A stretch of DNA of 49,274 nucleotides from Nitrososphaerales archaeon. Lineage in GTDB: Archaea > Thermoproteota > Nitrososphaeria > Nitrososphaerales > Gagatemarchaeaceae. Location: the NCBI GenBank assembly GCA_035626075.1, contig DASPOK010000054.1, positions 1 through 49,274 of the forward strand, in the 5' to 3' direction. A program made the translations under genes and the position numbers. Of this stretch, positions 18,232-22,375 are shown piece after piece (the first letter of the stretch is position 1; every line of letters starts with the position of its first letter). Below the pieces are notes generated by a model. The model did not search any database. It worked only from the letters and a program-made list of their open reading frames with translations, and was not told the origin of the DNA.

Positions 18232-18690
18232 TTGGCCAGACTAGACGACCTTGACATGAAGATACTCTCGTCCCTCTACTCGGACGCCTCGGTGTCAGTT
18301 CCAAAACTGAGCAAGCAGCTCGGCGTGAACCTGTCCGTGATGTACAGTAGAATCAAGCGGCTCCAGAAGCGGGGTGTCATCGAAAGGTTCACCGTGCAGG
18401 TAAACGAGGACCGCCTCGGAATGCGGGCCGGAGCACTCGCTGGACTCAACATAGACCCTAAGCAGAGGGAGACGGTACTGAAGGAGATCGAGAAGATCGA
18501 AGGAGTGCGCCTGATCCGCGAAGTGACCGGGAGGTTCGACATAATTGCCAACCTGAAGGGCCAGTCTCTTGACGAACTGCACAGGGCTGTTTACGACGTG
18601 ATAGGCAGGATTCCCGGGGTAATGCACACCGAGATATTCATGGAAGTGTCCCGGCGCAACCCCCCGGTGAACTTCAGGTTAGTAGAGTAA
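18232..18690 (+). CDS. Lrp/AsnC family transcriptional regulator
   Basis: LDDLDMKILSSLYSDASVSVPKLSKQLGVNLSVMYSRIKRLQKRGVIERF plus a C-terminal RAM-like domain. Confidence 0.85.
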   Translation: MARLDDLDMKILSSLYSDASVSVPKLSKQLGVNLSVMYSRIKRLQKRGVIERFTVQVNEDRLGMRAGALAGLNIDPKQRETVLKEIEKIEGVRLIREVTGRFDIIANLKGQSLDELHRAVYDVIGRIPGVMHTEIFMEVSRRNPPVNFRLVE

Positions 18691-18730: not shown

Positions 18731-19414
18731 TTGGATCCGCTGATCCTCCTCGACCAAGCTGTCGCCCAGGAGAAGATGCCCCAAGCCATGGCGAGGAAAG
18801 TGAGGACGAGGATGAAGTATCTGCAGGGCGCAGTTCTGAGGGTAGAGAGGGCCAGCGGAATCCGTTATCCCCCCTACTATGTTGAGCCAGTCCTCCCCGT
18901 GTCCAAGGCAGGGGGTGAGTACGGCCAGATGGGGGTGCTCTTCGCCAGGGTTATCCCGGTCACAACGACAGGGAGTGTTGTAATCCTGGTGCAGTTCACG
19001 GCTGCGTTGGTGGCATTTGGGACGAAGGGGACACTGGAGGCTGTCGCCGCCCACGAGTTCACCCACTACGTGGACCTCGTGAGGAAGCTCAGCACCACCG
19101 ACGTTACGAGCGACGAGCTGTCGACCACGCTCTTCGAAGCATCCTTTGCAGACGCCGAGCGGACCATGCCGCCAAAGCTCTTGTTCTCGGAGAAGGCATT
19201 GATATCGCTCGTCAGCCGGAAATTCAAGAACGTCCTCTCCGACCCCGCACTCAACAAGAAGGTGGGGGACGAATGGATTGCGAAGAACCTTCCAATTCAC
19301 TGGGTTGGCCCTGAGGAGAACACCGTGAAGCTCCCCATGGGCCTTGTGGCAACGACACGATTCGACCCCGCCGTGATTTCGAAAGTCGCGGAGCTAAAGA
19401 AGGCGCGCTCTTGA
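18731..19414 (+). CDS. uncharacterised protein with an HExxH motif (putative zinc metallopeptidase)
   Basis: Contains LEAVAAHEFTHYVDLV; I recognise no family. The stop overlaps the start of the next gene (TTGA at 19411-19414). The antisense ORF 18728..19300 has non-protein-like composition. Confidence 0.5.
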   Translation: MDPLILLDQAVAQEKMPQAMARKVRTRMKYLQGAVLRVERASGIRYPPYYVEPVLPVSKAGGEYGQMGVLFARVIPVTTTGSVVILVQFTAALVAFGTKGTLEAVAAHEFTHYVDLVRKLSTTDVTSDELSTTLFEASFADAERTMPPKLLFSEKALISLVSRKFKNVLSDPALNKKVGDEWIAKNLPIHWVGPEENTVKLPMGLVATTRFDPAVISKVAELKKARS

Positions 19415-21036
19415 GACTCTCGGACGACGAGCGAACTACCCTCACTTCTGTCGCCTCCTCCTTGGTGGAGCCTTCCAAGATTACTGCCGTCTGCGCCTAC
19501 GGTTCCAAGGTGGCGGGGTACGCACGCAAGGATTCAGACTACGACCTCATCATCGTGCTGAAGCGGTTCCGCGAGGGAGTGAGGTACAAGTACGTCGATG
19601 CTCCTGTCGCCGCATCGGCCCTTATTGTCGATGAGGAAATGCTCCGACAAGACGCCCTGTCCTCTCACCTGGGGGAGTTTGTCGTTGGACGACTGCTGAA
19701 CGTGTACGAGCCCGTACAAAACGCCGACCTCTTCCGACGCGTCGAATTTGAATACAAGAAGAGGGTCTTAGTTGAGGCACTCCTGGAGCTCTCTTCGGAC
19801 TACGGGGATTTCGGGAGGCACCTCGTCGTCCCATACGAGTATTTTCTTTTTGACAAGCTCCACACTCGAGCGGCCATCTACCCTCCCGCGCTTTACAGCT
19901 ACGTGCACACATACACGTGCCCCCTGGGCGAAGAGAACAAGGCGATCTCCATCGGCGGGTTTGTGTCCGCGGCGGATTCCCTCCAGTCACGAGGGCTCCT
20001 CCTGGCGGTGCAAGGCGGCGTAAAGATGGCCCCAGAGAAGCTGAAGGCCGATGCCTTCACCCGCGTGCAGTCCATGTTCTCGGTGACCGCAAGAGGGGTG
20101 ACACAGTACGCGATTCACGGATATGCAGGCAGAGTGGGTCCGTCGGTCTTCAGCAGGGAGGCGCTCTCGAAGCTCAGAAGGATGAGGGAAAACCCGCCCC
20201 CCTTCGCTCCTCTGGAGAGGCCGCGGTCGCTGCTGCGACTTGAGGAGGGGGCAGTCATCCCTGACGCTTCGCTGCTCGTCGAGGAGTTGGCGCGCCTCCT
20301 GGGGTTCGAGAGATACTCGACAAAGGAGAAGGACATAGGCGAGCCGTACTCCACCACCAGGGTACTTACTTTCTGGGACTCCGCAAGGGAGAGGTCTGTG
20401 GTGGTCAAGAACTACACTGACGTGAGGTCGCTGAAGTGGGCCCTGCTCGGGGTGTGGGCGTCCGCAGCCAACAAGTTCAGTACCGCCCCGGTGTCCCGGA
20501 TGGACCGCGAGTACGGCATGTCCCTTAAGCTTCGAGCCGTGGGAGTGATGGTCCCGTCAGTAGTTGCGGTCGCTCCGGCGGAGAGAATCCTTGTGAAAGA
20601 CTTCGTCAGAGGACCGACCCTCTCAAGCGTGATCAACGCGCTCCTCAAGGGAGCTGGCGATGGGATAGGTCCGGTGTCGGCCTATGGTGAGGTGATGTCG
20701 AAGGTCCACTCCTGCGGGATAGCGCTTGGGGACGCCAAGCCGAGCAACGTGGTCGTCTCCGACAAGGGGCTCTATCTCACGGACCTGGAACAGTCCTTTC
20801 CTGGGGGGGACCAGGCCTGGGACGTGGCCGAGTTTCTCTACTACACGGCCAAGCTTTCCGTTAAGGAGGAGGCCATGAAGAAGGTGGCAAGCGCCTTCCT
20901 TGAATCCTATGCGAAATCAGGAAGCCGAGCAAGCATTTCGAGGGCGAGAGGACAGAAGTATTTCGGCCCCTTCAGGCCTTTCCTGACCCCCGGAATGGCC
21001 AAAATGCTGAAAGAGCTGATGTCAGCCTACGCCTGA
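19411..21036 (+). CDS. fusion protein: N-terminal Pol-beta-type nucleotidyltransferase domain and C-terminal Bud32/ePK-like kinase domain
   Basis: NTase motif: AVCAYGSKVAGYARKDSDYDLIIV (GS...DxD). Kinase-like features: VVVKNY (beta3 Lys), REYG (alphaC Glu), LGDAKPSNVVV (DxKPxN catalytic loop), LYLTDLEQS (DFG equivalent) and DQAWDVAEFLYY (Bud32-like). Confidence 0.6.
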   Translation: MRLSDDERTTLTSVASSLVEPSKITAVCAYGSKVAGYARKDSDYDLIIVLKRFREGVRYKYVDAPVAASALIVDEEMLRQDALSSHLGEFVVGRLLNVYEPVQNADLFRRVEFEYKKRVLVEALLELSSDYGDFGRHLVVPYEYFLFDKLHTRAAIYPPALYSYVHTYTCPLGEENKAISIGGFVSAADSLQSRGLLLAVQGGVKMAPEKLKADAFTRVQSMFSVTARGVTQYAIHGYAGRVGPSVFSREALSKLRRMRENPPPFAPLERPRSLLRLEEGAVIPDASLLVEELARLLGFERYSTKEKDIGEPYSTTRVLTFWDSARERSVVVKNYTDVRSLKWALLGVWASAANKFSTAPVSRMDREYGMSLKLRAVGVMVPSVVAVAPAERILVKDFVRGPTLSSVINALLKGAGDGIGPVSAYGEVMSKVHSCGIALGDAKPSNVVVSDKGLYLTDLEQSFPGGDQAWDVAEFLYYTAKLSVKEEAMKKVASAFLESYAKSGSRASISRARGQKYFGPFRPFLTPGMAKMLKELMSAYA

Positions 21037-21101: not shown

Positions 21102-21183
21102 TGGGGTCGGCCGGATTTGAACCAGCGGTTTTGCTGGGTCTGGGCAAGTAAAGTTCTGCTCATGAGAACGGCCTGGCGACCTT
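21102..21183 (-). other. tRNA-like element: intact T-arm and 3' acceptor strand without a matching 5' acceptor strand (tRNA relic, 3' half or att scar)
   Basis: Minus strand: GCUGG-UUCAAAU-CCGGC (21126-21110), then CGACCCC-A (21109-21102), and a perfect 5-bp/7-nt-loop hairpin GUUCU-CAUGAGC-AGAAC (21169-21153). The only 5' partner is AAGGUCG (21183-21177), which gives 5 of 7 pairs. Confidence 0.4.
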
Positions 21184-21853: not shown

Positions 21854-22375
21854 CTAATGTATTCCCCTTATGCCCAGCTTCTCCAAGATCGACCGGTTTC
21901 TGGACTTGGCCACGGCGTTGGCCTTCACCACCACCACCCCGACCCCTGGCTGTCCGTAGAAGACTACGGCGGATACCGGAGCCATTGCTATGGCGAGGAT
22001 TGTCATGAGGTCTTCCTCCCCCCGTACCAGCACCCGGACAGGCTTCATCCCGAGGAAAGCGGCACGCATGGCGCCGATGGCCCCCAGAGTCAGAGTGCCC
22101 GCGGGGTTCTTCACCTTCAACAGCCTGGCGTACCCGACTTTCGGAGGTGCTCTCTGCATCCGTCTCTCCATGCCGTCCACGACCTGCACCTCAGGGGTGC
22201 GCCCGAGGCTTGCCATGGTCTCGGTGACCCTGTCCCCGACCGTCACAACCATCGGAGCCTCCTCGACTAGCCGTGCGAACTCGGGACCCGCCACCTCTTC
22301 CCCTGTAAAGACGCGGCCCATAGGTTCGGCCAGCTTGGGCCTGAGTGCCTCGGGGAGCCGATAGACCCTGCGCAA
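21854..22375 (-). CDS. DUF359 family protein (archaeal GTP-dependent dephospho-CoA kinase family)
   Basis: VVTVGDRVTE...VQVVDGMERR...VRGEEDLMTILAIAMAPVSAVVFYGQPGVGVVVV, in the conserved position between spt4 and rps24e. Confidence 0.65.
   Translation of the reverse strand: MRRVYRLPEALRPKLAEPMGRVFTGEEVAGPEFARLVEEAPMVVTVGDRVTETMASLGRTPEVQVVDGMERRMQRAPPKVGYARLLKVKNPAGTLTLGAIGAMRAAFLGMKPVRVLVRGEEDLMTILAIAMAPVSAVVFYGQPGVGVVVVKANAVAKSRNRSILEKLGIRGIH

Follow-up and report, generated by a model that had tools for sequence, protein, structure and literature searches.

A nucleotidyltransferase-kinase fusion protein of Nitrososphaerales with a Tam41-like N-terminal fold, a candidate for CDP-archaeol synthesis in lineages without CarS

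The stretch of Nitrososphaerales DNA analyzed here (49,274 nt, hereafter the window) contains two overlapping genes on the plus strand, which we call gene 1 and gene 2. The product of gene 2 is cytosolic and joins two enzymatic modules, a nucleotidyltransferase (NTase) and a small kinase; it belongs to an uncharacterised and unnamed family of ~550-aa proteins widespread in Thermoproteota, while gene 1 encodes a HExxH protein that we read as a metallohydrolase. We found that the N-terminal part of the gene 2 model resembles Tam41, a soluble cytidine diphosphate (CDP)-diacylglycerol synthase, and that outside the order the NTase motif of the family is intact almost exclusively in genomes that lack the CDP-archaeol synthase CarS. 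These two observations suggest, tentatively and at somewhat less than an even chance, that the NTase half of gene 2 makes CDP-archaeol where CarS is missing. An earlier note on this DNA, made from its letters, had given the same reading frames of 227 and 541 aa with their TTGA overlap, an Lrp-family regulator upstream and ribosomal protein genes on both sides, all of which agree with the sequence and with Pfam. It had also called an HExxH protein, a Pol-beta NTase and a Bud32-like atypical kinase, and motifs, Pfam and structural models bear out these domain calls. The features of the two genes are as follows:

18731-19414 (+), gene 1: open reading frame (ORF) of 227 aa with a TTG start
19052-19066 (+), HEFTH metal-binding/catalytic motif of gene 1 (aa 108-112), invariant across 22 homologues
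19411-19414 (+), TTGA overlap of 4 nt between the gene 1 stop (TGA) and the gene 2 start (TTG), read from the sequence
19411-21036 (+), gene 2: ORF of 541 aa with a TTG start
19411-19719 (+), Pol-beta-type NTase core of gene 2 (aa 1-103) with G31-S32, D43xD45 and D74, from Pfam, motif and the strands and helices of the model
19720-20148 (+), helical and winged-helix module of gene 2 (aa 104-246), from the model; together with the NTase core it resembles Tam41
20257-21036 (+), Bud32-like small kinase domain with a C-terminal helical extension (gene 2 aa 283-541), from NCBIfam, a profile search against the PDB and the VIA fold search

The N-terminal half of gene 2 resembles Tam41 in predicted fold

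Judged from its sequence, the N-terminus of gene 2 is a member of the Pol-beta nucleotidyltransferase superfamily. The Pfam scores are low (PF01909 at 22.4 bits against a cut-off of 21, which is marginal, and PF18765 at 23.7 bits), and the motif reads YGS...SDYD, with G31, S32, D43 and D45 invariant and D74 nearly so in the protein's own, intact-motif subfamily. Further near-invariant residues (D81, G88, K116, R118, E122 and P158) lie in or beside the module that follows. The earlier note had taken the region between the two catalytic domains for a linker of about 250 aa; the AlphaFold2 model of gene 2 (predicted local distance difference test score, pLDDT, 92.8; predicted template modeling score, pTM, 0.90) contains no disordered stretch of that length, and predicts instead, with high confidence, a helical/winged-helix module that continues the NTase core.

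We compared this model with 48,161 chains using VIA-align and considered the 50 best matches, which extended down to Z 11.8. Residues 1-246 matched Tam41 in two structures, 7ecd_A (Z 14.8, root-mean-square deviation 3.5 A, 211 residues aligned) and 6ig2_A (Z 12.0), and no NTase other than Tam41 was among these 50 matches. Foldseek with the same model added just a weak match to ANT(4'), and the ESM Atlas returned generic NTase clusters only. Tam41/Mmp37 (PF09139) is the soluble CDP-diacylglycerol synthase of mitochondria and bacteria, and shares with gene 2 the order of an NTase followed by a helical/winged-helix fold; both proteins are soluble, unlike the membrane enzymes CdsA and CarS, and the chemistry proposed to be common to them is the transfer of a nucleoside monophosphate from CTP to a lipid phosphate. 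The differences are considerable, as there is no sequence similarity (10% identity in the structural alignment), and gene 2 ends in a kinase where Tam41 has a membrane-binding C-terminus. Gene 2 is also archaeal, so its lipid would be archaetidic acid.

Two smaller results concern the same region. We rejected the CCA-adding enzyme as an identity for gene 2, as that enzyme (PF09249) is present separately in 5/5 genomes tested. In a control genome, that of Methanocaldococcus jannaschii, PF09139 gave a sub-threshold match, and judging from this match other archaeal Tam41-like proteins may exist.

The NTase motif is intact where CarS is missing

Because the N-terminus of gene 2 matched the Tam41 fold, we searched these genomes for CarS (PF01864). 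CarS was absent from the window's own genome and above cut-off in none of the genomes sampled from the order (0/41, several of them closed), and CarS proteins of the nearest CarS-bearing relatives, used as queries, found nothing in the CarS-less genomes; CdsA (PF01148) was likewise found in 0/5 genomes of the order. CarS had been described in 2014 as not identifiable in Thaumarchaeota (PMC4244643). The CDP-alcohol phosphatidyltransferase, which needs CDP-archaeol, was present in all five genomes of the order tested, and was kept in four of the five CarS-less lineages outside it. Among 200 other Thermoproteota genomes, 149 had CarS, which was missing from a few families.

The NTase motif was aligned for 69 gene 2 homologues from outside the order, representing ~20 family-level lineages, and compared with the presence of CarS in the same genomes:

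CarS absent, NTase motif intact (G-S, D-x-D, D): 21 genomes (families f10, f16, f25, f29 and f33, and genus g30 of family f17)
CarS present, NTase motif substituted (GP, DxN and others) or unrecognisable: 46 genomes (14 family-level lineages)
CarS present, NTase motif intact: 1 genome (G024, family f9)
CarS absent, NTase motif not alignable: 1 genome (G007, family f8)

Concerning the two exceptions, the gene 2 of G024 nests inside Nitrososphaerales in the gene tree (support 99/95) and was therefore probably acquired horizontally, and G007 is a 76%-complete genome whose gene 2 lies on a 4.6-kb contig. Both states occurred within a single family, f17, in which genus g30 is CarS-less with an intact motif and genus g55 is CarS-bearing with a degenerate one. 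Since intact and degenerate states are interleaved in a gene-tree clade with 100/100 support, several independent transitions are implied. This complementarity lends indirect support to a putative cytidylyltransferase activity of gene 2. CarS and gene 2 would thus have the same proposed product, and the distribution of CarS is complementary to that of intact gene 2; however, CarS is an unrelated integral membrane protein of ~170 aa, and gene 2 would be its analogue and not its homologue.

The kinase half is conserved throughout the gene 2 family

All catalytic residues of a kinase are present in the C-terminal half of gene 2 (K333, E367, D441, N446 and D458), within motifs (VVVK333, E367, GD441AKPSN446 and D458LEQ) that are 94-100% conserved among 72 family representatives. 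In this set K333, E367, H433, D471 and Y500 were invariant, and D441, K443, N446, D458, E460 and Q461 were conserved at 94-97%. The earlier note had seen no obvious Gly-rich loop, and the loop is indeed weak, although its G310 is invariant in the closer subfamily. The kinase residues were also intact in 69/69 of the distant homologues outside the order, and this conservation across the family indicates that the kinase centre is under strong selection.

The closest structural relative of this half was Bud32. Its profile matched Bud32 in the PDB at E 5e-16, and in the VIA search residues 283-541 matched the Bud32 structures 3en9 (Z 18.2), 4ww5 (Z 18.1) and 8unk (Z 17.3), with small-molecule kinases lower (MTR kinase Z 15.2, APH 14-15, WaaP 14.7 and choline kinase 13.5). 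Bud32/PRPK, the kinase/ATPase of KEOPS, and gene 2 share the minimal kinase fold, the VxK motif, the alphaC Glu, DxKPxN, DLE in place of DFG, and the D..WD..E..YY segment. Unlike Bud32, gene 2 is fused to an NTase module instead of being paired with Kae1, and it has an additional C-terminal helical extension that aligns with small-molecule kinases. Its scores against the Bud32 models over residues 362-506 were less than half of the family cut-offs (TIGR03724 52.6 bits against 125, and NF011463 55.3 bits against 188). The canonical Bud32 of this genome is a separate gene on contig C80 that scored above the cut-off at 192 bits, with gene 2 second at 54.9, and we therefore rejected the identification of gene 2 as the Bud32 of KEOPS. 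Ark1, the archaeal tRNA U47 2'-OH kinase (8yv5; Z 12.3, 151 of 173 residues aligned), is likewise a small Bud32/RIO-like kinase, and phosphorylates a non-protein hydroxyl; it differs from gene 2 in standing alone at ~170 aa, and gene 2 is less similar to it than to Bud32.

Large protein collections hold hundreds of 541-aa proteins that are 74-100% identical to gene 2, found in metagenome-assembled genomes (MAGs) of Thaumarchaeota/Nitrososphaerales, and the wider family (E<1e-30), clustered at 50% identity, falls into 132 clusters whose proteins almost all measure 520-600 aa and align over their full length. Relatives are annotated automatically as 'Bud32/predicted nucleotidyltransferase' or as hypothetical proteins. 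For the gene pair, Pfam and NCBIfam gave sub-threshold or generic matches only, and our literature search found no paper on the gene 2 family or on the combination of NTase, kinase and HExxH protein. The earlier note's remark that no described system joins an NTase, a kinase and a metallopeptidase-like partner thus holds for the families and literature searched. Profile and structure searches likewise yielded no known joint function, but they did reveal resemblances in fold to Tam41, Bud32 and zincins, without membership above the cut-offs of the Tam41 or Bud32 models.

The collections also contain proteins that match the NTase half alone (P0286, P0314 and P0333) or the kinase half alone (P0255, P0293 and P0296), and an Atlas cluster of 277-aa proteins similarly matches one half only. 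Some Nitrososphaeria MAGs carry a second, divergent gene 2 copy, 40-45% identical to the window's protein and without gene 1 upstream (G209, on C17 and C12; L146 with L113; L150 with L147). In a genome of the same genus (L076, G215:C1:1203610-1205230), two overlapping frames (aa 1-127 and 126-540) take the place of a single gene 2, and in a genome of another family (G225:C55:3178-4794) the gene has two in-frame TAA codons; these broken copies may be frameshifts, pseudogenes or assembly errors.

A possible role in CDP-archaeol synthesis and its alternatives

We propose, from two independent observations, that the NTase half supplies CDP-archaeol, or a CDP-lipid close to it, in CarS-less lineages: it combines a Tam41-like fold with an NTase site that is selected only where CarS is missing. 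By Tam41-type chemistry it would convert a lipid phosphate and CTP to CDP-lipid and pyrophosphate, and the CDP-archaeol so formed would feed the CDP-alcohol phosphatidyltransferases of a lineage in which CarS and CdsA are both missing. The kinase half, being universally conserved, must have a role independent of NTase catalysis; it would act on the same or a linked substrate, and we offer as a coherent guess that it phosphorylates a free lipid alcohol, which the NTase or CarS would then use. The N-terminal module could act as a platform for binding the substrate, also in proteins that have lost its catalytic aspartates. We infer that both active sites of the protein work in this organism. The broader scenario, in which this soluble route replaces CarS in at least seven CarS-less Thermoproteota lineages, all non-AOA Nitrososphaerales (those that do not oxidise ammonia) among them, the fused kinase phosphorylates the lipid alcohol, so that a single polypeptide turns archaeol-type alcohols into CDP-archaeol, and CarS-bearing lineages keep only the kinase, for salvage, is doubtful. 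If true, it would give archaea their first Tam41 analogue and the Bud32/RIO kinase branch its first lipid-directed member.

A number of observations weigh against CDP-archaeol synthesis by gene 2, foremost among them those from the ammonia-oxidising archaea (AOA) of the order. The AOA families (26 + 1 genomes) have neither CarS nor CdsA nor gene 2, although they do possess the CDP-alcohol transferase, and a search of five AOA genomes with the N-terminal profile found no stand-alone Tam41-like homologue and, in one of them, unrelated minimal NTases. There must therefore be another route to CDP-archaeol in the order, and this route could serve the non-AOA members too. The link to Tam41 is also confined to structure: PF09139 had no match (E<=10) when the whole genome was searched in six frames and none at E<=1 in the Pfam scan of gene 2, and the N-terminal profile found only generic minimal NTases in the PDB, over its first 60 residues. 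Moreover, Tam41 is reported to keep one of the three acidic NTase residues (PMC11646218), whereas gene 2 has the canonical GS/DxD/D triad. No membrane anchor was predicted in gene 2, and its best amphipathic helix (residues 213-232) is moderate (hydrophobic moment, muH, 0.48). In the CarS-less genus g30 (genome G018) no CDP-alcohol transferase was seen, and the 69 homologues in the CarS comparison include related genomes, which are non-independent samples. Finally, the nearest characterised relatives of the kinase (Bud32, RIO and Ark1) act on tRNA or ribosomes and not on lipids, and the genes beside gene 2 homologues of other lineages point faintly to RNA metabolism. While both the fold match to Tam41 and the complementarity with CarS are new results, the absence of both CarS and gene 2 from AOA means that CDP-archaeol synthesis by gene 2 is not the whole answer.

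These last points raise the alternative that gene 2 is an RNA-directed enzyme, whose kinase phosphorylates a tRNA or rRNA hydroxyl or is an RNA-dependent ATPase, and whose NTase adds or transfers a nucleotide to RNA, be it for tailing, repair or a capping-like formation of NppN; the pair would then serve translation and RNA maturation, as its neighbours do. RNA or ribonucleoproteins are the targets of all close kinase relatives that have been characterised (Bud32 in KEOPS, RIO on the pre-40S particle and Ark1 on tRNA U47 2'-OH), and gene 2 itself lies within a translation/transcription block and has weak RlaP and MTPAP-like Pfam matches. The neighbours of distant gene 2 homologues include an RNase J-like metallo-beta-lactamase (RMMBL) gene 3' of gene 2 in 3/20 loci and an Lhr helicase gene 5' of it in one family; however, the surroundings of the gene differ from locus to locus outside the order, and the majority of the genes there have no relation to RNA (TBP, signal peptidase, PmbA/TldD and aminotransferase). 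The family is basic (median pI 9.1), which would suit RNA binding but equally fits a peripheral membrane protein, and neither the hydrophobic moment nor the pI separates the two for gene 2. The best N-terminal fold match is to a lipid enzyme and not to an RNA nucleotidyltransferase, a CCA-adding enzyme is present separately, and an RNA substrate leaves unexplained why the NTase motif is retained only where CarS is missing. We consider an RNA-directed role rather unlikely.

The activation of a soluble small molecule, in which the kinase would phosphorylate a metabolite hydroxyl (a sugar, polyol or cofactor precursor) and the NTase would convert the product to a nucleoside diphosphate derivative, follows the logic of HldE, FKP and LicA/LicC and involves no lipid. 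Fusions of a kinase with a nucleotidyltransferase are a known design for such two-step activation, and small-molecule kinases match the kinase domain and its C-terminal helices nearly as closely as Bud32 does. On the other hand, the known sugar-1-phosphate NTases use a fold other than Pol-beta, no candidate metabolite or pathway genes were found near gene 2, and the complementarity with CarS is not predicted, which makes this role improbable.

The earlier note had leaned towards a nucleotide-signalling or toxin-antitoxin-like module. A protein-directed module of this kind would consist of a kinase acting on proteins, an NTase that either makes a nucleotide signal or attaches AMP or UMP to a protein, and an HExxH protease by which an effector is gated or processed. 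We regard this as very improbable: the NTase core is weakly similar to minimal NTases, the MntA type among them, but its MntA score is 19.9 bits against a cut-off of 60 (NF047752), and the kinase matches to PADLOC PD-T4-6 models are generic noise at E about 1e-4 (>=1.5e-4) over partial stretches, with none for gene 1. The tight coupling to a putative metalloprotease is seen in one order, whereas in most lineages each gene is found without the other. Neither a HEPN protein nor another toxin lies beside gene 2, its neighbours being the HExxH protein and rps27ae, and gene 2 is mostly single-copy, with host-like GC, and syntenic across the order in a vertically conserved housekeeping block. Protein kinases typically have an activation segment and a substrate-binding lobe, both of which Bud32-type kinases lack (PMC5007285).

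Should the NTase half of gene 2 indeed make CDP-archaeol, it would provide a clonable candidate for a large part of a long-standing gap, as the enzyme for this step has long been unidentifiable in Thaumarchaeota (PMC4244643) even though their CDP-alcohol transferases need its product. It would represent a non-orthologous replacement of a core lipid enzyme, and would widen the substrate range of Bud32-type kinases. It would further be relevant to the rebuilding of the lipid pathway on the line towards the ammonia oxidisers, whose tetraether lipids serve as environmental proxies. Without such a role, the family would remain an uncharacterised enzyme with two activities that is both widespread and highly conserved, and that is automatically mislabelled as 'Bud32'.

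Gene 1 is a zincin-like protein of Nitrososphaeria

The protein encoded by gene 1 is soluble, and its family was found only in Nitrososphaeria. In agreement with the earlier note, which recognised no family for it, gene 1 had no Pfam or NCBIfam match. Within and beyond its AAHEFTHY motif, H108, E109, H112, D141 and W182 were invariant among the 22 homologues, which extend down to 18% identity. In the AlphaFold2 model (pLDDT 84.4) the HExxH lies within a helix (residues 99-122). The best fold matches were SPRTN (Z 6.8), selecase (6.7), proabylysin (6.5), projannalysin (6.0) and Wss1 (4.9), and nearly all of the top 50 were zincins, yet with Z<=6.8. Like the minigluzincins (proabylysin, projannalysin and selecase) and the SprT/Wss1/SPRTN proteins, gene 1 has a HExxH helix packed on a small mixed sheet; the minigluzincin and SPRTN matches, at Z 6.0-6.8 over ~100 residues, support a common arrangement only. 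It differs from them in being about twice their size, with N- and C-terminal additions, and in belonging to no Pfam or NCBIfam family.

Other searches gave fainter leads. The SprT-like model PF10263 had no match in the window's gene 1 and weak, sub-threshold matches in 9/22 homologues (best E 0.023), a Foldseek search with the gene 1 model had no match at E<=0.001, and the ESM Atlas pointed weakly to M78 and SprT. The invariant D141, which would be a candidate for the third metal ligand, lies in a low-confidence loop. From the model, we read gene 1 as a minimal zincin-type metallohydrolase.

The gene pair is conserved in non-AOA Nitrososphaerales

At the junction of the two genes, TCTTGAGAC, the TGA stop of gene 1 and the TTG start of gene 2 share 4 nt. 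Gene 1 abutted or overlapped gene 2 upstream on the same strand at 29/29 loci, taken from the genus and eight other families of the order, with a -4 or near-abutting junction in every case, and among these loci the identity of gene 2 fell to 38-46%. We also gathered 80 named Nitrososphaeria loci with a 10-sequence gene 2 alignment as the query, mostly from peat, soil and groundwater MAGs and including Candidatus Gagatemarchaeum; gene 1 abutted gene 2 in 72 of them, and the order lrp-gene 1-gene 2 was found in 64. The commonest arrangement across the non-AOA order was rps6e-lrp-gene 1-gene 2-(rps27ae-rps24e-DUF359). Contigs from three peat RNA libraries cover all three genes (lrp, gene 1, gene 2) and cross the junction at position 19411; they fit expression but are no proof of a single transcript, and their depth figures cannot rank the genes. 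The predicted complex of the two proteins scored 0.02 and 0.00 (alignments A2 and A1) against a mark of 0.32, to which we give no weight either way. In non-AOA Nitrososphaerales, gene 1 is probably co-transcribed and translationally coupled with gene 2, in agreement with the coupling named in the earlier note.

Outside this group, each gene was found alone. Gene 1 was present without gene 2 in 26/26 genomes of the AOA-like family f2, between Pus10 and rps24e, and because it lies beside rps24e there, its position predates the loss of gene 2 in the AOA-like lineage. In the loci examined from these genomes (L018 in G175, L017 and L019-L025), a gene 1 homologue of 235 aa stands between the tRNA pseudouridine synthase gene Pus10 and a convergent rps24e. 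Another Nitrososphaeria family, f9, had gene 1 in 17/17 genomes and lacked gene 2 in 16/17; the lone genome with gene 2 carries it on a different contig from gene 1. At the f9 loci (L026-L035, e.g., L032 397-5602) we observed the same-strand order PYC_OADA carboxylase subunit, M42 aminopeptidase, gene 1, S-adenosylhomocysteine hydrolase and DUF169, in which the M42 peptidase may hint at a proteolytic role for gene 1.

Conversely, gene 2 was found in ~20 other Thermoproteota families, with gene 1 nearby in 0/20 loci examined. Beside the gene 2 homologues at L041, L054, L050 and L051 (families f17, f30 and f11) there are one or two tandem genes of ~330-370 aa with weak PF01909 matches. A PmbA/TldD metallopeptidase gene adjoins the gene 2 homologue in f17 (L041 and L054) and lies near the NTase-like pair at L051 of f11, and thus a different metallopeptidase neighbours the gene 2 family in lineages without gene 1.

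The co-conservation asked about in the earlier note was therefore found within the non-AOA Nitrososphaerales (29/29 and 72/80) and not outside the order. Because gene 1 occurs independently elsewhere, it is not an obligate subunit of the gene 2 protein. Gene order and gene content mark the pair as an old operon of non-AOA Nitrososphaerales, and not as an obligate two-component system.

Locus and surroundings

Two further features adjoin the gene pair:

18232-18690 (+), Lrp/AsnC-family transcription regulator (Pfam HTH_24 and AsnC_trans_reg), directly 5' of gene 1
21102-21183 (-), T-arm-like string between gene 2 and rps27ae (fold z-score -2.0, minus strand only)

By Pfam, the left flank consists of aIF5B/infB and rps6e followed by the Lrp/AsnC regulator, which keeps its position upstream of gene 1 in most relatives, and the right flank, on the minus strand, of rps27ae, rps24e, DUF359, Spt4, RpoE' and NAD synthase. 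The earlier note had described 21102-21183 as a tRNA-like fragment. A T-arm-like string is there on the minus strand, but ARAGORN found 0 tRNA genes in it (with or without introns, at lowered thresholds), Rfam had 0 matches at E<=1, and blastn gave no match across the loci of 29 relatives; the string is outside the gene 1-gene 2 unit. The same note had suggested that the pair could be an old insertion. This idea finds no support, as the GC across the genes (0.58-0.62) is like that of the flanks, the s6e-lrp-gene 1-gene 2-s27ae-s24e-DUF359 block is conserved, gene 1 also lies by rps24e in AOA, and the bounding fragment is neither a tRNA nor conserved. Within the rps24e-spt4 string, 21854-22375 (-) encodes a DUF359 protein (PF04019, E 4e-30), a family to which archaeal GTP-dependent dephospho-CoA kinase activity is ascribed.

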